From IMG/VR virus record IMGVR_UViG_2576861193_000006: a stretch of DNA of 35,177 bases. One strand, written 5' to 3'. The notes under the pieces were generated by a model that was not told the origin of the DNA, did no database searches, and saw nothing but the letters and a program-made list of their open reading frames with translations. This document shows, piece by piece, positions 1-35,177 of the stretch. How positions within the stretch are numbered: position 1 is the first letter of the stretch; each line of letters opens with the position of its first letter. The DNA comes from a virus (taxonomy: Duplodnaviria; Heunggongvirae; Uroviricota; Caudoviricetes). Made by a program: the position numbers and the translations under genes.

Positions 1-462
1 ATGCTGGGTGATTGTTTCCCTCCTGATTTTAAGGCTAATTTTAGTCGTGAAAGAGGTATATCACCCGGTGATGTATTGTATCTTCATTGTGATTTTACGA
101 CCCCACCTAAAGTAAAATATATGGTGGTTGTTTGCTGTGAACCTCTTTTAGTTCTTCTAATAAATTCAGATATAAATGAATTTATTAAGAGAAACAATGA
201 TCTTATGGCTTGTCAGGTCGAAATTAATAGAGAGGACCATGATTTTCTTAAATGGGACTCATTTGTTAATTGCATTGAGGCTCATGCTGCTTTCGATCTT
301 GAAATTATTAAAGAGAAAATAGCCATCCAATATGGCGACGTGCTAAAAGGTCGCATTACAGATCATTGTATGAGACAAGTTCGATGTGCAGTTGAGATAT
401 CTAAAATCATGGTTAAACGGCATAAAAAACTGATACTCGCTGCTCTTCAACATTATGAATAA
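1..462 (+). CDS. hypothetical protein, 153 aa, AT-rich cargo gene; no recognisable domain
   Basis: ORF with ATG at 1 and TAA at 460-462, followed by a hairpin terminator; base composition visibly more AT-rich than the phage core; convergent with xis. May be 5'-truncated by the window edge. Confidence 0.4.
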   Translation: MLGDCFPPDFKANFSRERGISPGDVLYLHCDFTTPPKVKYMVVVCCEPLLVLLINSDINEFIKRNNDLMACQVEINREDHDFLKWDSFVNCIEAHAAFDLEIIKEKIAIQYGDVLKGRITDHCMRQVRCAVEISKIMVKRHKKLILAALQHYE

Positions 463-483
463 ACCCACCTTTGGATGGGTTTA
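461..483. terminator. hairpin between convergent genes (AAACCCA-loop-TGGGTTT)
   Basis: 7-bp inverted repeat at 461-467/476-482 directly after the stop of ORF 1..462 and 13 nt before the stop of the minus-strand xis-like gene. Confidence 0.5.
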
Positions 484-495
484 TTCATATTCTAT

Positions 496-768
496 TTAAA
501 TGAGCCTTTGTTTATGGGTTCTGACCCTTTCCCACTCAGCACGCCCTTCTTCTCGCCTTTTGTCTATGTATTCCGCAAGATCCTGAATATTGATGCAACG
601 TTTTGCTTTTTGTGATGTGCCGATGCGATATGTTGGAACGGGCAACTTACAAGCGTTTGCTTTTGCTTCTGCCGTGGCTGGACTCATGCCAAAGTACTTT
701 TGGCTAACTGCTGAGAGTTCAATGTTAGGGGTATTGAATTCAGCCATCAGTAAAAACAAGGTGTTCAT
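496..768 (-). CDS. xis: excisionase-like DNA-binding protein (putative Xis)
   Basis: Small basic protein MNTLFLLMAEF... resembling lambdoid prophage excisionase-like proteins; ATG at 768 has GGAG 6 nt upstream; the longer ORF reaching 795 lacks an RBS. Confidence 0.6.
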   Translation of the reverse strand: MNTLFLLMAEFNTPNIELSAVSQKYFGMSPATAEAKANACKLPVPTYRIGTSQKAKRCINIQDLAEYIDKRREEGRAEWERVRTHKQRLI

Positions 769-804
769 AATTTTCTCCATCAAAACCGGCTGCACCCGGG
801 AAAA

Positions 805-1380
805 TCATAATTCTGTGCTGGTGGCAGGAATTAATTTCTGCCAGATAGCGGAAACATATTTTGCCTGATGACGGGCATCAGCCAGGGCGTTGTGCCGTTC
901 GCCATCGAAAGGCATGTCCATTTTGGGGTCGAATCCGATGGAACGCCCAAGCGTAACGATCGTGCGTACATCGTGGTCATTCCAGTACGCCCACGGGCAG
1001 ATTTGTCCTGCTCGCTCATAAGCTCCACGTAAAATTACGTTGTCGAAGGTGGCCCCGTTACCCCAGACTTTTAAATATTTCGTATTGTCTGCGTGCCGGT
1101 TAATGAAATGGTTTAGTTCTGAGAGTGCATCGCTGATCGACAAAGTATCATCAATACAGATTGCAGCTCGCGCTTCAGGGCTTTGTTTCAACCACCACAG
1201 GATGGTATCGCCGTCAGGTGTAGCTCCTTGCTTCATAGCACTGTCTAGGCTGACAACCGCATAGAATTCTTGTCCGATGTCTCCGGTTTCTGGAGTGAAG
1301 AACACCGCGCCAATGGAAACGATCGGTGCATCCTTATTTTTCCCCATCGTCTCAAGGTCGATCATTAAGTTGTTCATCAC
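805..1380 (-). CDS. DEDD-family 3'-5' exonuclease (DnaQ-like)
   Basis: Motifs IDLETMG (Exo I) and HNALADA (Exo III); start ATG overlaps upstream stop (ATGA coupling). Confidence 0.75.
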   Translation of the reverse strand: MMNNLMIDLETMGKNKDAPIVSIGAVFFTPETGDIGQEFYAVVSLDSAMKQGATPDGDTILWWLKQSPEARAAICIDDTLSISDALSELNHFINRHADNTKYLKVWGNGATFDNVILRGAYERAGQICPWAYWNDHDVRTIVTLGRSIGFDPKMDMPFDGERHNALADARHQAKYVSAIWQKLIPATSTEL

Positions 1381-1925
1381 TTCACCTCCTGCGGCGGTTC
1401 CGGTAGCGGCATCCAGTGAGTTGCTTGCTCAATACCATTACCCGGCTTAATCGTTGCTTCTCCTCGCCGGAATGTGCTTCCTGTATAGCGTGCGGAGCAT
1501 ATTAGCGGTTCAACCAGATAGCTATCGAAATTCACCGAAATAAGCACGTTCTGGTTCTTTTCAGGCATCCGCTCACTACAGCTTATCCAACCATCCGGAG
1601 TTACCGGAGAGTTGCCATTTATATCGAAGTTTGGCTCTGCGTCCTGAACTAGGAGGATGTAACCATTCTTGGCAGTATCAAGTTCTAACGCCTCGGTGAC
1701 GGTACCGAAATAGCGATTACCTAAATCCGCATCACAAGTGCTTACATCAATGGAAACCTCCATGCCTTCGATTAATTCTGGCAAGTTGTAAGTTTGGCTT
1801 ACATGTTCTGCTCCCAGTGATGCCAGTGCAATCCGTGCCACTTCCATTTGTTCGCCACGGGTAAGCCCGTTATCAAGCGGATTTTTAATGAATAATTCGA
1901 TACGTTCTTTGGTAATAGTGGTCAT
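1377..1925 (-). CDS. DUF551-like phage protein
   Basis: 182-aa ORF with C-terminal HWMPLPEPP motif typical of DUF551 proteins of lambdoid prophages; translationally coupled to neighbours. Confidence 0.65.
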   Translation of the reverse strand: MTTITKERIELFIKNPLDNGLTRGEQMEVARIALASLGAEHVSQTYNLPELIEGMEVSIDVSTCDADLGNRYFGTVTEALELDTAKNGYILLVQDAEPNFDINGNSPVTPDGWISCSERMPEKNQNVLISVNFDSYLVEPLICSARYTGSTFRRGEATIKPGNGIEQATHWMPLPEPPQEVK

Positions 1926-2120: not shown

Positions 2121-2624
2121 TCACTCTCCTTTGATACGAATGCCCGCGGCGTGTGGCACATTAACTTCCACGATGCGCACTGTTGGTTTGTACATCTCAA
2201 TCGCTGTCAGCCAGTCAGCTCCTGTCATGCGCTTTTCCGCATCGCCATTAGTCCACTGAACCGGTACACCAATAGCCTTCATCGCGATTTCTATTTCCCC
2301 GGCAATGGCGCTTTTCCCGCAACCAGTAAAACCAGAGACAACGACAAGAACTTCACCTTTGGCTGGTTTTATTTCCCGTGCTTCCAGTTCTGCAATGCGT
2401 TTGCTTTGGGCTTCTCGTTCATCCAACAGCGCCTGCACTACTTCAGGGTTGAAAGCAGCAGCAAGACGGCTGGCGGTATAGTTAATACCCTCGTTGCGAG
2501 CCTCAGCACGTACTTCATCGAATTTACGCACCAGATACTCAGCATTTGTTTCATTCACTTTCAGATCTCGTGGTACACATTTCCCGCGAAGAAACCCTTC
2601 CATTTCGAAAACATTCATGCGCAT
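2121..2624 (-). CDS. P-loop (Walker A) containing early protein
   Basis: GFTGCGKS Walker-A-like motif in the C-terminal half; overlaps upstream HD gene by 10 nt. Confidence 0.65.
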   Translation of the reverse strand: MRMNVFEMEGFLRGKCVPRDLKVNETNAEYLVRKFDEVRAEARNEGINYTASRLAAAFNPEVVQALLDEREAQSKRIAELEAREIKPAKGEVLVVVSGFTGCGKSAIAGEIEIAMKAIGVPVQWTNGDAEKRMTGADWLTAIEMYKPTVRIVEVNVPHAAGIRIKGE

Positions 2625-3151
2625 TTGCGTAACTCCGATAAATCGTTAAAACGTTCCATAAACATCCCGTAGGCATGACCCGGTGCCAGTGGAATCACGT
2701 TGAACATCTCTGTTGCCGGGATGCCTTCCAGTACAGGCCAGAAAGAGCCATCATCAAGCCCGAGATCGCGGCGTTCGGTTGCCAGCATGATGAGATCGGC
2801 ATATTTCACGGGTGTACTCATAACTGGGGGTAACCCGTATTTCTCACGGATTACGGCGTCTATTTTTTCTTCCATCCGTTTATAGTCAGGAAGAAGGCGT
2901 TTCAGTGGTGCGGGAATGTCCTGGCAATACGCTTCTGTTGCATCATGCATTAACGCTTCAAAAGCAAATTCCTGCGGCACCAGCTGGCTGCAAAGAACCG
3001 CATGTTGGGCGACGCTGTAGAAGTGCGAAAGATGACCGGCAAAGCGACAGATATTTGAAAGGGAAACCGCGATATCGTTAATATCGATGTCGTCTTTATT
3101 TATCTTGTCATAATAAAAATGCTTCCCGGAAAAAGTTTTAATAAATGACAT
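2615..3151 (-). CDS. HD-domain phosphohydrolase (YfdR/YfbR-like 5'-deoxynucleotidase)
   Basis: H...HD metal-binding motifs (HFYSVAQHAV, LMHDATEA); start taken at MSFIKTF. Confidence 0.75.
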   Translation of the reverse strand: MSFIKTFSGKHFYYDKINKDDIDINDIAVSLSNICRFAGHLSHFYSVAQHAVLCSQLVPQEFAFEALMHDATEAYCQDIPAPLKRLLPDYKRMEEKIDAVIREKYGLPPVMSTPVKYADLIMLATERRDLGLDDGSFWPVLEGIPATEMFNVIPLAPGHAYGMFMERFNDLSELRKCA

Positions 3152-3278
3152 TTTGTTCTCCACGTATATGCACTGCACCGCGCTGAATTCTGGTAAAAGG
3201 AAGCCCTCACCATCCGGTGATTATTGAGTTAATTACGTTTCCATAAATGCCCCCGCAGGGGCATTTGCAGTAATGAAA

Positions 3279-4103
3279 TCAGGCGGTGAAAGTACCAATA
3301 AAGGTTTCTACTTTGCTGTCTTTGAATTTCTCAACAAGCAGATCACGAAATTCGTTAGCCATTTCTTCCTGCACCGCTTCCAGCTGAATAATGCGCAGAA
3401 CCAGTACAGGACGATCGCCAGTGATAATGCTGAGGCGTAATTTAAACGGACGTTCTTTCAGACCTTCAAACGGAACGCATTTAAATTCAAATGCCACTGG
3501 CATAATGTCTTTGGTCTTCGCTTCGACAGACTCCATCAGGGAGCGTTTGCCGCTGAAGTCATTATCTTCAAAATCAGCGGTCTGGTTTGCTTCAATCGTG
3601 ATTTTACGGACTGCCGCAGCCGCTTTTGTTGCTTGAATGGCGTCACCATTAGCATCAAAGCCCACAAGGTAGTCGGCCCAGTCTTCGATCCATTCTGCCA
3701 GTGACTTCTGGGAGTTACGCTCGCCGTTAACAGACAACAGAGCAGAGAACGGTGCTGTCTTTTTCAGTTTGAGAGTGGCAGTGTTATCTGCGTGACCTGG
3801 CTCATCAATAGTACCCAGGTTAAGCACACTGACGGCACGCATATTATCGGCATCGATAAAGCAGCGGGTGCCTTCATCTGCAAGATCTTTAGAATAACGG
3901 GTAAAATCATCGATGCTGGCAGTGGAAAGTGCACCACGGAAACGGAAGCGATTTAAATTAAATTTTTCCAGATCATGAATGCGGAAATTCTCAGGCAATG
4001 CCACAGCATCGGCACCAATCTTACTGATAATTTCATTAACACCCTGAGCAGAAATAAGGGCATGGATTTGATTAATTGCGGTTGCGTCTAAGTTCTGAGA
4101 CAT
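3279..4103 (-). CDS. DUF2303 / YfdQ-like protein
   Basis: 274-aa ORF starting [12 protein letters not shown], resembling YfdQ of E. coli CPS-53-type prophages. Confidence 0.7.
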
Positions 4104-4168: not shown

Positions 4169-4531
4169 TTAACGACCTGCTGCGCGGAGTTTTCCGTCAG
4201 GTTCACCGGCAAGAGTCAGTAATTGTCCCTGGTCTTCCTGCAGAATAGTCAGGCGGCCACCGCGATTGACATACATCGGCGTTTCGGTGGTGTCTTCTTC
4301 GGAAATTTTCCCGCGGTTAGTCGGGCGAACATATGAGAGTTTGTGTTTGATTTTCACACGGTTCTCATCAAATGGTTCGATTTCCAGGTTGAGCGAGACC
4401 TTACCTTTGGTTTTCGTGTTCATCACACCGGAAGCGACTTCACTGAGAACTGCGCCGATTTTGGTTTCAAATACGCCGCCGTCCAGCTCCCCGATAAATG
4501 CCTGCACATCAGTACTGCGTTCGCTAGCCAT
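4169..4531 (-). CDS. YfdP-like hypothetical protein (120 aa)
   Basis: ATG at 4531 with GAGGAG 7 nt upstream; the longer ORF to 4762 has no RBS and an implausible N-terminus. Confidence 0.65.
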   Translation of the reverse strand: MASERSTDVQAFIGELDGGVFETKIGAVLSEVASGVMNTKTKGKVSLNLEIEPFDENRVKIKHKLSYVRPTNRGKISEEDTTETPMYVNRGGRLTILQEDQGQLLTLAGEPDGKLRAAGR

Positions 4532-4578
4532 TTTGCTGCTCCTCATCATATCGACCCTGCAAGGTCGGTTAGTTTCTC

Positions 4579-4680
4579 CACAAAACAGAGAAGAACACCT
4601 GCGGTGGCAGCCGCCCGGATGGATTGGGTTATGAGCCCGTCGTCCGGTGATGCTCTTCTCTGTTTTGTAAAAAGAGCGGT
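4579..4680 (-). promoter_or_regulatory. boxA-like motif (CGCUCUUUUUA on the leftward transcript) followed by a compound hairpin; candidate nutL/put-like antitermination element
   Basis: Reverse complement of 4668-4678 reads CGCTCTTTTTA; 14-bp perfect inverted repeat 4581-4594/4654-4667 encloses a nested CCGGA/TCCGG hairpin; located about 50 nt upstream of the first early-left gene. Confidence 0.3.
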
Positions 4681-5139
4681 ACCAGCCGGAAGCAAGTGTA
4701 CAAACTGGTACCGCCAAAGCAGTGGCTGTTGTGGTGGGGTTGTCACTCAGGTGTATGGTCAACCTGACAATCCGGTGTCCTCAACGGGGAAAGAGTAACC
4801 CCGCCATACTTACCGCCGCGCCATTTCGCGGATTACCACAACGCTGAGAGCACTTAGCCAGTTACGGCACCACACTTTGTCGCGGTTCCATAAATGCCCT
4901 CATCGTTGCACCCTGGTCTCTTCCCAGGCGTCAAACCGAATCGCCACGCTGGTTAGGCGTCTTATCAGCATCCTCATTGACTTGCACATTCCGGCTACCT
5001 GGTTTGTTTGCCCGAGCAAGGAGTGGATTGTCCCCTTTAACGTCCCCAGACCGCTAACGACGCATGTGCCATACGCCGTGTTACAACCAAATTTTGTTAG
5101 TACCTTGTTTGTAGGTCTGGAAAGAAAGATAAAATGAAG

Positions 5140-5178
5140 TTGCGCATTATGCAAGTGTTTTTATTGCGAGATATGCAA
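5140..5178 (-). promoter_or_regulatory. candidate OL operators and pL promoter
   Basis: Two TTGC-N7-GCAA 15-mers (5140-5154, 5164-5178); on the minus strand TTGCAT (-35), 17-nt spacer, CATAAT (-10). Confidence 0.4.
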
Positions 5179-5188
5179 TTTAGTGGGT

Positions 5189-5213
5189 AATGAAAAGCCA
5201 CCTTCTGGTGGCT
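5189..5213 (-). terminator. rho-independent terminator downstream of cI
   Basis: AGCCACC/GGTGGCT stem followed on the minus strand by TTTTCATT, 20 nt past the cI stop. Confidence 0.55.
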
Positions 5214-5234
5214 AATTGATGTTGAGGTAGGGGG

Positions 5235-5927
5235 TTAATTGTGTCGCTTAAGGGTTTGTGACTGACTGATTAAGACCTTTCCAAAGACCATAAACCGGTG
5301 TTCGTTTTCGCTGGTAATTCCCCATTCGCGGTAAATCTGATTATCAGAAATTACCAGCAGTTTATCAGGTATCATTTGCAGTCGTTTGACGTAAATTTTA
5401 TCATCAAAACCAAATACATATATACCATCCCCATCAAACTGATTGATACTGATATCAACGAAGATGAGATCTCCTGGCTCAATGGTTGGACACATACTGT
5501 CCCCACGAACGTTGATAACTTTAATGTGATTTGCTGGTCGTCCACCAAACATCGATACAGCATTATCAGTTCTGTATTCAATGGCATGAATCACATCAAT
5601 GACATCACCGCCCTGGATAAGGCCATTTCCCGCACTGGCACTGACATCCAGCATTTCAATACGGAATACATCCTTCACCTGCGCAACATCCTCACTAATA
5701 CTGTTTTTACATACAGTATTACTTTTGAGGTCTGAGGTAAAGAGATCAGCAATATCAACACCTAAGCTCCTGGCAATATTACTCAGGGCTTGTTCAGTGA
5801 ATTGTTTCTGCTTACCTGTTTCGAGGCGCGAGATATTCGCCGCATCCACTCCTATTGCTTCAGCGAGATCGGCGATTTTCATGTTCTTCGCCTGGCGAAG
5901 TTGTCTGACTCGATTTCCTATGTTCAT
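5235..5927 (-). CDS. cI: CI-type prophage repressor (HTH_XRE N-terminal domain + S24 LexA-like peptidase domain)
   Basis: N-terminal HTH (QLRQAKNMKIADLAEAIGV), C-terminal S24 features (GDSM ... K); divergent from cro-like gene across an operator region. Confidence 0.9.
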   Translation of the reverse strand: MNIGNRVRQLRQAKNMKIADLAEAIGVDAANISRLETGKQKQFTEQALSNIARSLGVDIADLFTSDLKSNTVCKNSISEDVAQVKDVFRIEMLDVSASAGNGLIQGGDVIDVIHAIEYRTDNAVSMFGGRPANHIKVINVRGDSMCPTIEPGDLIFVDISINQFDGDGIYVFGFDDKIYVKRLQMIPDKLLVISDNQIYREWGITSENEHRFMVFGKVLISQSQTLKRHN

Positions 5928-5939
5928 GCGTTTATTACA

Positions 5940-6015
5940 TTTCTTTATTGCGCGTTAAGCAAATCAACTTGCGCAAAATATTTGCGTGAAATAATATGCT
6001 CATCACGCAATATGT
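5940..6015. promoter_or_regulatory. OR operator region with candidate PR and PRM
   Basis: TTGC-N7-GCAA 15-mer (5948-5962) and related TTGCGC half-sites; PR candidate TTGCGC (-35, 5969-5974) / TAATAT (-10, 5992-5997); inverted repeat TTGCGTGA (5981-5988) / TCACGCAA (6004-6011). Confidence 0.45.
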
Positions 6016-6024
6016 GGAGGTTAT

Positions 6025-6285
6025 ATGCAATCACCATTACGGAATGTGCGTAAGGCGCACGGATTTACTTTGCAGCATGTTGCTGCGGGCGTTCAGGTCA
6101 ATCCAGCGACGCTGAGTCGTATTGAAAGACTGGAACAAATTCCATCTATCGATCTTGCAGAACGTCTGGCCAATTTTTTTAAGGGTGAAATCAGCGAAAT
6201 GCAGATTCTTTATCCGGCACGTTTTCAATCTAGCCAAAACCAGAATGGGTTTAAACCACAGGAACAGGAGGTAAGCCGTGGGTAA
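6025..6285 (+). CDS. cro: Cro-like HTH regulator
   Basis: HTH_XRE motif (FTLQHVAAGVQVNPATLSRIE); GGAGG 4 nt upstream of ATG; divergent from cI. Confidence 0.8.
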   Translation: MQSPLRNVRKAHGFTLQHVAAGVQVNPATLSRIERLEQIPSIDLAERLANFFKGEISEMQILYPARFQSSQNQNGFKPQEQEVSRG

Positions 6286-6829
6286 GCATCATTGGAAAGT
6301 GGAAAAACAACCTGAGTGGTACGTGAAAGCTGTCAGAAAAACTATCGCGGCATTGCCTGGGGGTTACGCTGAAGCTGCTGACTGGCTGGATGTAACAGAG
6401 AACGCTTTATTCAACCGCCTTCGTGCAGATGGCGATCAGATTTTCCCGCTGGGATGGGCAATGGTTTTACAGCGCGCGGCTGGCACTCACTACATTGCGG
6501 ATGCTGTCGCACAGTCTGCTGGTGGGGTGTTCGTATCGCTTCCTGAAATTGAGGAAGTAGAGAACGCCGATATAAACCAGCGCCTGCTGGAAGTCATCGA
6601 ACAGATCGGGAATTACTCAAAGCAGATTCGTTCGGCAATCGAAGATGGGGTCGTGGAGCCACACGAGCAGACAGCAATTAATGATGAGTTGTATCTGTCA
6701 ATTTCGAAGCTCCAGGAGCATGCAGCACTGGTCTACAAAATCTTCTGCGCTCCAGAAAAGAGTGACGCCCGCGAGTGTGCAGCTCCGGGCGTCGTGGCGT
6801 TTTGTGTCTGTGGAGAAACTAACGCATGA
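6278..6829 (+). CDS. CII-like / YdaT-like regulatory protein (putative)
   Basis: GTG start with AGGAGGT 5 nt upstream; position immediately after cro; weak remembered similarity to phage CII (CP76)-family proteins. Confidence 0.55.
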   Translation: MGKHHWKVEKQPEWYVKAVRKTIAALPGGYAEAADWLDVTENALFNRLRADGDQIFPLGWAMVLQRAAGTHYIADAVAQSAGGVFVSLPEIEEVENADINQRLLEVIEQIGNYSKQIRSAIEDGVVEPHEQTAINDELYLSISKLQEHAALVYKIFCAPEKSDARECAAPGVVAFCVCGETNA

Positions 6830-12692: not shown

Positions 12693-12709
12693 TTTTGTGG
12701 AGAACGTTG

Positions 12710-13075
12710 ATGCGTGATATTCAAATGGTTCTTGAACGTTGGGGGGCATGGGTGGCAAATAATCACGAGGATGTCACCTGGTCGTCTATTGCTGCAGGAT
12801 TTAAAGGACTAATCCCTTCAAAAGTAAAATCCCGCCCGCAATGTTGTGACGATGATGCGATGATCATTTGTGGGTGCATGGCTCGCCTGAAAAAGAACAA
12901 CAGCGATTTGCACGATTTATTAGTGGATTATTATGTAGGTGGTATGACGTTTATGGCGCTTGCCCGTAAACATGGGCGTTCTGATTGCTGGGTTGGGCGT
13001 TTATTGCAAAAGGCTGAAGGTGTAGTTGATGGCATGTTAATGATGTTAGAAATTGAGCTAGAGATGGATCGTTAG
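12710..13075 (+). CDS. Q: late-gene antiterminator Q (phage 82/21 / QuuD type)
   Basis: [36 protein letters not shown]; GGAG 7 nt upstream of ATG 12710; located just before the late promoter region. Confidence 0.85.
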
Positions 13076-13159: not shown

Positions 13160-13606
13160 TTAAGGTTTTAATTCATCAAGACGTTGTTGGATAGTGTTTT
13201 TGCTTGCGTTGTCTGTTATAGCCATTTGTTGTACTTGCCCCATTGCCATTTGAGTTTCCATCCACATATCGGCCCACACTTTTGTATCGTTATTAACTTG
13301 AGCGATAGTAAATCTGACTTTTGATACCGGGGTTGTTGAATAGGCATTGCCGATTAACATTTGTCCAAAAACAGCAGACCCGCCTTCCAGTTCTTTACCA
13401 CATATAACACTGCTGTTATCAGCGTTGTAAATTATCAACCCTCTACTATTGCAGTAATTCACAAGGGCATCTTTGACTTTATCTTTTGTCGTATTTTGAT
13501 AAACCCCCTCAGGTTTTCCTGATTGAGTTTTTTTTATCAATGGTACGGAAGAAGTACAACCTGAAATGATAGTTGCGCTAAGTAATAGTACAGTCATTTT
13601 ATTCAT
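13160..13606 (-). CDS. lipoprotein (moron), 148 aa, unknown function
   Basis: Signal peptide with lipobox LLSATIISG-C; antisense to the phage late operon; AT-rich island 13080-13850. Confidence 0.8.
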   Translation of the reverse strand: MNKMTVLLLSATIISGCTSSVPLIKKTQSGKPEGVYQNTTKDKVKDALVNYCNSRGLIIYNADNSSVICGKELEGGSAVFGQMLIGNAYSTTPVSKVRFTIAQVNNDTKVWADMWMETQMAMGQVQQMAITDNASKNTIQQRLDELKP

Positions 13607-31728: not shown

Positions 31729-32267
31729 AAACGGGGGCTGAAGCCATCCGGGCGCTGGCCACGCAGCTTCCGGCGTTTCGCCAGAAACTGAATGAGGGCT
31801 GGTATCAGGTGCGCATTTCCGGGCGTGATGCAGGCGAAAACGAATTATCTGCCCGTCTTAATGAGCCGCTGGCAAATGGTGCCGTGATCCACATCGTACC
31901 GCGTCTGGCGGGTGCCAAAAGTGGCGGTATTTTTCAGGCAGTGCTGGGTGCGGCGCTAATTGCTACGGCAATCTGGATGCCGGGGCTTAGTATTGTTGCA
32001 AGTAATCTCATGTTCTCTCTTGGGGCAGGTATGGTTTTAGGCGGTGTTGCGCAGATGCTGGCACCGAAAGCCAAAACGCCTAAAGTGTCAGCCACTGATA
32101 ACGGTAAGCAAAATACCTATTTTTCCTCATTGGATAACATGGTTGCCCAAGGCAATGTCCTGCCTGTTCTGTACGGTGAAATGCGCGTGGGGTCACGTGT
32201 GGCATCTCAGGAGATCAGCACGGCAGATGAAGGGGATGGTGGTCAGGTTGTGGTAATTGGGCGGTAA
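31626..32267 (+). CDS. I: tail assembly protein I
   Basis: MAATHTLPLASPGMARICLYGDLQRFGRRIDLRVKTGAEAIRALATQLPAFRQK ... matches lambda gpI. Confidence 0.85.
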   Translation: MAATHTLPLASPGMARICLYGDLQRFGRRIDLRVKTGAEAIRALATQLPAFRQKLNEGWYQVRISGRDAGENELSARLNEPLANGAVIHIVPRLAGAKSGGIFQAVLGAALIATAIWMPGLSIVASNLMFSLGAGMVLGGVAQMLAPKAKTPKVSATDNGKQNTYFSSLDNMVAQGNVLPVLYGEMRVGSRVASQEISTADEGDGGQVVVIGR

Positions 32268-32339
32268 TATTATTTACTCATGTTCTAACTGATTTAATAT
32301 TTATATCGAACACTGATAATTATTCTGTTGGTTAGCTAT

Positions 32340-32678
32340 ATGAACAAAACGATTTTATTCTGCACGATTATTGCCTTAACAGGATGTAAATCTTTGGATT
32401 ACGTAAAATCCGGCAAGCCTGTAATGGAAGGTAATTCATTAAAAAATATTGATGAATTGTCAGGCTGCATATCCAGACAATGGGCTGGTAATGGAACACC
32501 TATAACATCCATTCCTATTGAGAATGGGGTAAGCCTTTTAGTTCCACAGGCTATGGGTGGGTATGATGTTGTGCTTGATATCAAAAAAGCAGGAAATGGC
32601 AGTAGTTTTACTCTTTATGAACGCGTACCAGCATTAACGCCAAAAATTTTTGCTGATAGTGTTAATGCATGTAAATAA
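32340..32678 (+). CDS. lipoprotein (moron) between I and J, 112 aa, unknown function
   Basis: Signal peptide with lipobox IIALTG-C; AT-rich island 32268-32700 between conserved tail genes; own downstream terminator. Confidence 0.75.
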   Translation: MNKTILFCTIIALTGCKSLDYVKSGKPVMEGNSLKNIDELSGCISRQWAGNGTPITSIPIENGVSLLVPQAMGGYDVVLDIKKAGNGSSFTLYERVPALTPKIFADSVNACK

Positions 32679-32701
32679 TAGTTAATCCTGCCGTAACTCA
32701 T

Positions 32702-32741: not shown

Positions 32742-35177
<2,436 letters not shown>

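Follow-up and report, generated by a model that had tools for sequence, protein, structure and literature searches.

A probable MazF-fold toxin gene of a PanA-PanT pair as cargo in the attL-xis slot of a dusA-integrating lambdoid prophage of Escherichia coli

The IMG/VR virus record IMGVR_UViG_2576861193_000006 (Caudoviricetes; 35,177 nucleotides (nt), the whole of which is referred to here as the window) opens on a low-GC plus-strand open reading frame (ORF) that converges with the excisionase-like gene xis, and the question raised by this locus is what such a gene does at a place where an initial annotation, made from the sequence alone, had expected an integrase and suspected toxin-type cargo instead. 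The ORF is very probably the toxin gene, panT, of a PanA-PanT type II toxin-antitoxin pair, whose antitoxin gene, panA, is cut off by the window edge and would have to accompany panT in any functional test. The fuller reading, in which PanT is a MazF-fold toxin, presumably an RNase, encoded in a PanA-PanT cargo cassette (panAT) of a dusA lambdoid prophage that would profit from it through exclusion or stabilisation, is in our judgement probable. It assigns a role to a gene listed as 'hypothetical protein' that 46 of 5426 complete E. coli genomes (about 1%) carry and that is present also in Salmonella.

A low-GC gene and its Panacea partner

According to the window ORF list, panT starts with an ATG at base 1 and has 153 codons on the plus strand. 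Its GC content is 35.1% (24% at third codon positions), compared with a window mean of 51.5% (s.d. 5.2); values this low were reached by 0.23% of stretches of 462 nt, every one of them overlapping the ORF, which is the GC minimum of the window. Both the low GC and the convergence with xis had been described initially and were confirmed, the xis product matching PF11112 (PrtN; E-value 4e-23) and the excisionase family phrog_1300 (E 7e-40). The homologues of PanT begin with the identical residues Met-Leu-Gly-Asp, so the gene is complete, and a reading of the ORF as a larger gene cut down to its 3' end was ruled out on the same ground. The early suspicion that the window edge truncates the locus holds for the operon, which is cut between panA and panT (Table 1), and not for the gene.

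A hairpin between the two convergent genes contains the panT stop codon within its stem and follows the xis stop codon at a distance of 7 nt. Folding was strong in either direction, with free energies of -18.1 kcal/mol (plus strand) and -19.6 kcal/mol (minus strand) and a z of about -5 for each, and none of 200 shuffles folded equally well. The initial annotation had described it as a hairpin common to both genes; its position is indeed common to both and it is strong on both strands, yet it is followed by a T-rich tail on the plus strand only and is a textbook intrinsic terminator for the plus-strand gene alone. On that strand it is best described as a terminator-like site of the putative panAT operon. 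An Rfam search of window positions 1-1500 gave zero matches, that is, a non-coding RNA was not found.

For the extension to the left, 5426 complete E. coli genomes were searched with window positions 1-520, which recurred in 46 of them, always on the chromosome (45 at 99% identity or more and one at 95-99%). The left flank, followed in six genomes, had the order zur, yjbM (DUF2713), a 105-bp (base pairs) 5' fragment of dusA, a Panacea-domain gene, panT and xis; the dusA fragment is annotated as a pseudogene, and in AVS0790, one of the six, both yjbM and the fragment are unannotated. No integrase was found on that side of the window in the E. coli chromosomes, nor did the flank, with PanA, the dusA remnant, yjbM and zur, identify the ORF as the 3' end of a housekeeping or integrase-associated gene, which had been named initially as the finding that would overturn the cargo interpretation. 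PanA matched PF13274 with an E-value of 6.8e-20 and 72.5 bits (cut-off 25.7 bits). A candidate panA promoter, TTGACC-18-TAAGAT, is located 13 nt before the annotated start; promoter-like sites in the scan were no more frequent than by chance.

In a scan of one genome per species, comprising 20 loci, a same-strand ORF of about 150-220 amino acids (aa) ended just upstream of the panT homologue (within a few tens of nt) in 20 of 20 loci, and all 20 upstream products matched PF13274. These loci span Photorhabdus spp., Proteus, Atlantibacter, Serratia, Idiomarina, Marinimicrobium, Thiotrichaceae, Acidobacteriota and Candidatus Vecturithrix. The sole homologue of PanT in a phage record, gp24 of Serratia phage OS31 (45.6% identity), likewise has a Panacea protein (E 1e-22) encoded immediately before it, at a location that differs from that in E. 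coli, after the Q antiterminator gene and before the methylase and lysis genes. In Klebsiella, the pair was found within the tail module of some prophages; at other sites it adjoins a tailspike gene, with Arc/Bro-N-type genes a few genes upstream. In Rahnella aceris (CP002505, extracted locus 4471-6688), the pair is carried by a P2-like prophage, where it separates gpA (replication gene A) from the portal gene, an interval documented as an anti-phage hotspot of P2-like phages (PMC9122126). The genes around the pair therefore vary among the E. coli, Serratia phage, Klebsiella and Rahnella contexts, and the Panacea-toxin pairing was kept at all related loci examined, in several phyla and several phage contexts. 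The gene next to the R. aceris pair encodes a 305-aa protein with an AbiJ_NTD4 domain, and this interval is likely a multi-system defence islet.

Kurata et al. 2022 (PNAS, PMC8832971) named DUF4065 'Panacea', reported that PanA neutralises many unrelated PanT toxins by binding them directly, and compiled a catalogue of 88 toxin clusters. The product of our ORF is 55% identical to WP_065390163.1 of Photorhabdus namnaonensis, and Photorhabdus T5 proteins in general showed 51-56% identity (tblastn E-values of 1e-51 to 1e-58). In Dataset S1 of that work, WP_065390163.1, P. khanii WP_036849733.1 and P. thracensis WP_046973966.1 are members of cluster T5, with the antitoxin gene first and a gap of 3 nt, and by sequence PanT belongs to this published cluster. 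Cluster T6, which includes the validated toxin of P. moraviensis, had been suspected first and was abandoned when the accession look-up placed the Photorhabdus homologues in T5. With a Panacea gene immediately upstream, T5 membership and a MazF fold in the model described below, the initial guess of toxin-type cargo close to the attachment site is well supported.

Family and predicted fold of PanT

Searches with panT against Pfam, NCBIfam, PADLOC and PDB sequences were all empty, and PHROGs returned just one marginal match (0.009), to a family of unknown function, in agreement with the initial statement that the ORF has no domain recognisable at sequence level. A word-indexed search with the protein retrieved 41 clusters, mostly from Enterobacterales, with members of about 153 aa each and all annotated as 'hypothetical'. 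A full scan with a hidden Markov model (HMM) built from the alignment of these 41 sequences yielded 1250 representatives (50% identity) at E ≤ 1e-3, of which 633 at E ≤ 1e-10. The T5 family is large, with about 1250 clusters at 50% identity, and has neither a Pfam model nor biochemistry.

Of the sensitive homology and structure searches proposed with the initial annotation, those with sequence profiles yielded no usable annotation and the structural one was informative. The AlphaFold2 model of PanT, obtained with the 41-sequence alignment (pLDDT 88.2, pTM 0.82), comprises a barrel of five to six strands, preceded by an N-terminal helix and followed by two to three C-terminal helices. In Foldseek searches of the PDB, MazF-mt3 (E 5.8e-4) and then MazF-mt1 ranked at the top, with probability 1.00, and the best match among viral models (BFVD) was an 'Endoribonuclease'. 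The model has the SH3-like barrel of the MazF/PemK/Kid/CcdB toxin superfamily, and PanT is accordingly modelled as a MazF/Kid/CcdB toxin fold with an added N-terminal helix and a C-terminal extension. The T5 representative of the catalogue had been matched by HHpred, with much deeper profiles than ours, to EndoA/MazF (99.5%) and CcdB (98.3-98.6%), as recorded in Dataset S1 (PMC8832971).

Across 118 diverse family members, K39 was invariant and G23, F32, K37, N55, S56, F82, L83, S87 and C91 were at least 90% conserved. In the model, strand 2 begins with K37 and K39 and strand 3 ends with N55-S56; we take these, from MazF structures, to be the positions of the catalytic pair, an Arg in the region of strands 1-2 and a Thr/Ser where strand 3 ends. 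The hhalign alignments, which were non-significant but topologically sensible, laid PanT LLINS (52-56) over AITAQ of EndoA (BsMazF), which contains the catalytic Thr48, and PanT WDSFVNC over EndoA RDSVILLEQ. The modelled placement of K39 and N55-S56 like the catalytic Arg and Thr of MazF is thus no more than suggestive.

The attL-xis slot of the dusA prophage

Contrary to the initial expectation, the integrase does not belong at the place occupied by panT. The prophage of strain GF153, which also matches the right end of the window, has at its far end the order tail J, lom, tail fibre, tail fibre assembly, DinI, integrase, intact dusA and pspG; int (WP_000332269.1) is divergent from the intact dusA at this end, and the 105-bp dusA remnant lies at the other. 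The remnant is about 85% identical to the 5' end of intact dusA up to ATGCTCGA and divergent beyond, and by this comparison it marks attL, just left of the panAT cassette. Among the 46 E. coli chromosomes, the leftward extension proposed initially thus led to the attL remnant, and the integrase was located at the opposite prophage end. In dusA-associated integrase elements, the element provides a new dusA 5' end and the remnant stays at the other boundary (PMC4482086); the panAT-carrying prophage has this usual layout, with the integrase not replaced by anything. The free phage mEp460 has the order DinI, int, attP region, two small plus-strand ORFs, xis and exo, and because attP separates int from the cargo and xis side in this phage group, the integrase of the prophage is found at the far end, beside the intact dusA. 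The stretch from attP to xis in dusA-integrating lambdoid phages is, judging from these gene orders, a cargo slot.

The content of this slot is variable. The panT region (window 1-495) was present in none of 11 phage records that share the xis sequence. In mEp460, the slot (extracted locus 2519-3422) holds the two small hypothetical ORFs, which are unrelated to panAT, and in phiSTEC1575-Stx2k (extracted locus 308-1352) it holds a distantly related PanA of 157 aa (E 3e-4) with an unrelated partner of 182 aa (BLASTP E 6). The spacing of the latter pair, 22 nt, is that recorded for the validated PanAT of Shiga toxin-producing E. coli (STEC) O31; the match between the two pairs is one of spacing, the accessions of the Stx2k pair not being among those listed. 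The attL-xis slot is, from these sequences, apparently a hotspot of Panacea pair swapping among sibling phages, and the best explanation of panAT is that of accessory cargo between attL and xis of a dusA-integrating lambdoid E. coli prophage. With its differing PanA-toxin combinations, the slot offers a convenient natural system for the study of Panacea partner swapping, and it is equally suited to asking whether PanAT pairs protect lysogens against other phages.

Variation was also found within the toxin gene itself. In E. coli AST240 (extracted locus 1201-1705, at about window position 316), an additional A in the GAGAAAA poly-A run causes a +1 frameshift in panT and panA is intact; three related O166:H15 genomes had the same match length of 521 bp. 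Truncated PanT forms of 112-113 aa occurred on more than 80 contigs, their link to the AST240 frameshift not being established, and the intact 153-aa form on at least 1000 contigs. In strain 730V1, the right end of the prophage is interrupted by IS26 and IS5 and adjoins a CP4-44-like island (GTPase, DUF932, antirestriction, radC, yeeT); no integrase was seen in this degraded prophage, and panA-panT is intact at its left end.

Table 1 Positions of the features of the locus, in window coordinates
Feature	Position	Strand	Remarks
panT	1..462	+	Complete 153-aa gene, very probably of the toxin of a PanA-PanT pair; RefSeq WP_001547986.1; predicted MazF/PemK fold, Kurata cluster T5 type
Hairpin between convergent panT and xis	454..489	both	14-pair stem, including the panT stop codon; T-rich tail on the plus strand only
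xis, excisionase-like, PrtN/PF11112 family, phrog_1300	496..768 (RefSeq start)	-	Convergent with panT; longest ORF reaches 795 from GTG
3'-5' exonuclease gene (Rv2179c-like)	805..1380	-	First early-left-operon gene past xis; start of the conserved prophage backbone
panA, Panacea-domain gene, probable antitoxin	Outside the window, ends 5 nt upstream of base 1	+	WP_001547985.1; 193 aa as annotated

The sequence next to the slot is shared more widely. Window positions 496-800 (xis and the start of the exonuclease gene) are 100% identical to the end of the record of phage vB_EcoM-720R4, which has Mu-like contractile-tail genes, whereas the window has the lambda-type tail genes L, K, I and J, so that identical xis-proximal sequence is joined to different tail modules. 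The vB_EcoM-720R4 record stops exactly at xis, without int and panAT, and resembles a trimmed prophage. At the other end, the window terminates inside tail gene J, and its integrase must therefore lie beyond the right edge, together with DinI and attR. A 586-aa ORF without a Pfam match on the minus strand at 33345-35105, antisense within J, is probably spurious. Two further low-GC patches were noted. The first (13160-13606, about 36% GC, minus strand) carries an ORF of 148 aa with a lipoprotein-type signal sequence (MNKMTVLLLSATIISGC...), antisense to and just downstream of a possible Q-antiterminator gene (12695-13075, putative by position), and resembles a further accessory cargo gene. The second (about 32241-32700, about 36% GC) contains a 116-aa hypothetical ORF on the plus strand (32328-32678), flanked by tail assembly gene I and tail gene J, which is also 'hypothetical' in strain GF153.

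Possible activity and benefit, and relation to known systems

By analogy with other PanAT pairs, PanA would bind PanT directly and neutralise it, and free PanT would be a sequence-specific endoribonuclease that arrests translation, like MazF and the MazF-like PanTs of P. moraviensis (T6) and B. ruminantium (T25), which inhibit translation and for which PanA-PanT complexes are reported (PMC8832971). We consider such an activity, a MazF-like endoribonuclease that blocks translation and is held inactive by direct binding of PanA, to be fairly likely. The benefit of the cassette would most likely be that superinfecting phages are aborted or excluded or that the prophage is stabilised; a service to the prophage as an exclusion or abortive-infection module, which is compatible with stabilisation, is a tentative proposal. 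Given the convergence with xis, antiterminated leftward early transcription at induction would read antisense through panT and panA and could couple prophage induction to the toxin:antitoxin balance. A more elaborate scheme, which we regard as doubtful, combines this antisense coupling with a prophage abortive-infection or exclusion system in which PanA would sense a cue from an infecting phage or from induction and free the MazF-fold nuclease, the non-canonical Lys/Asn-Ser site and the extra helical C-terminal domain directing it to a target other than that of MazF, such as a specific tRNA or rRNA site.

Several observations weigh against a MazF-like toxin with a role in defence. A PemK_toxin Pfam match was obtained for none of the 118 diverse family members, HMMER searches of PDB sequences with family profiles of 25 and 118 sequences were empty, and hhalign of the family profile with E. 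coli MazF, B. subtilis EndoA and a four-sequence MazF/Kid profile gave non-significant probabilities of 0.3-5%; our own sequence-profile tests did not tie the PanT family to MazF. The suggestive match of catalytic residues draws on topology and a non-significant alignment and involves Lys for Arg and Asn/Ser for Thr, and the PanT of panAT is known from its sequence and a model. Neither PanA nor PanT has a PADLOC model match, and hence the pair has no documented defence role. The toxin is dispensable in some lineages, as frameshifted panT exists in them. Lastly, the toxin of Chryseobacterium bovis, the only T5 member tested in the catalogue, scored 'Toxic' in E. coli and was not rescued there by its own PanA (PMC8832971).

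Were panAT inactive as a toxin-antitoxin pair in E. coli, PanT would be non-toxic, decayed or a prophage regulator or RNA-binding factor, and its adjacency to PanA would reflect another joint function. The substitution of the canonical MazF catalytic residues and the frameshift of AST240, with the truncated forms of uncertain connection to it, could be read in this way, but a frameshifted toxin gene next to a retained antitoxin gene is typical of genuine toxin-antitoxin loci. Specific polar residues are moreover strongly conserved throughout the family, the intact form is found on the contigs counted above and the pair is conserved across phyla. As to toxicity, some predicted PanTs, such as that of the E. 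coli MOD1 T1 pair, were 'not toxic', and the one T5 member mentioned above was toxic in E. coli (PMC8832971). On this evidence, we hold an inactive pair to be improbable. Still less credit is due to the notion that PanT is a CcdB-like DNA gyrase poison, or strikes another non-RNA target, with PanA still acting as antitoxin: CcdB shares the superfamily fold, but the ten better fold matches were all MazF/Kid RNases, the next tier (ToxN, AbiQ and CptN) consists of RNases as well, endoribonucleases ranked first in both Foldseek searches, and other MazF-like PanTs specifically inhibit translation (PMC8832971). We regard this alternative as very improbable.

The alternative that comes closest to the proposed benefit is that panAT is mainly an addiction or stabilisation module, penalising loss or excision of the prophage, and not an anti-phage defence. 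Stabilisation of mobile elements is a classical role of toxin-antitoxin systems (PMC8832971), the cassette lies at the extreme attL end of the prophage, and it was retained in the degraded prophage of 730V1, in which IS5/IS26 disrupt the right end and an integrase is missing. Unrelated phages nevertheless carry the pair at several accessory sites, one of them the P2 gpA-portal hotspot beside an AbiJ-like gene, a pattern typical of defence cargo, and we find it rather unlikely that stabilisation is its main role, the two roles not being mutually exclusive. A PanA-PanT toxin cassette whose toxin probably has a MazF fold is the reading that we retain.

The panAT cassette belongs to a catalogued family, as one of its untested members, and does not represent a new type of system. 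Its E. coli accessions were found neither in the available portion of Dataset S1 (PMC8832971) nor in the NetFlax supplement (PMC10440598), and neither that supplement nor a 2026 study of P2/P4 defence hotspots mentions the panAT accessions or Panacea. With the catalogued T5 pairs, it shares a Panacea gene (DUF4065/PF13274) in first position, a toxin gene a few nt downstream and a toxin of about 150 aa with a MazF-like fold and no sequence-level domain match, and differs in its location in the attL-xis slot of a dusA prophage. In the catalogue, neutralisation, complex and target are demonstrated for no T5 member. The T6 and T25 PanTs are likewise neutralised by PanA and similar to MazF by HHpred, the P. 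moraviensis T6 toxin also being without a CDD match, and they are translation inhibitors whose complexes with PanA were formed or inferred; they belong to other sequence clusters than T5 and are likened to PanT through their MazF similarity, not by direct comparison.

Unlike MazF, Kid (PemK) and EndoA, PanT has no Pfam PemK match, carries about 50 extra residues (N-terminal helix and two to three C-terminal helices, as modelled) and has a Lys where MazF has its catalytic Arg, and PanA is a globular Panacea protein, whereas the MazE/PemI antitoxins of MazEF-type systems are of the AbrB or ribbon-helix-helix (RHH) type. The type VI system SocAB of Caulobacter has an antitoxin with the same Panacea/SocA domain as PanA, but its SocB is a DnaN inhibitor of cluster T10, unrelated to PanT; membership of panAT in SocAB was ruled out, as the SocA equivalog model NF047745 gave 17.1 bits against a cut-off of 190 bits and the partner is of the T5 and not the T10/SocB type. 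A parallel in genomic position is the validated PanAT of E. coli STEC O31, whose T3 toxin depolarises membranes: a PanA-led pair with the spacing of the published one apparently occupies the same attL-xis slot in phiSTEC1575-Stx2k, with a distant PanA and a partner unrelated to PanT.
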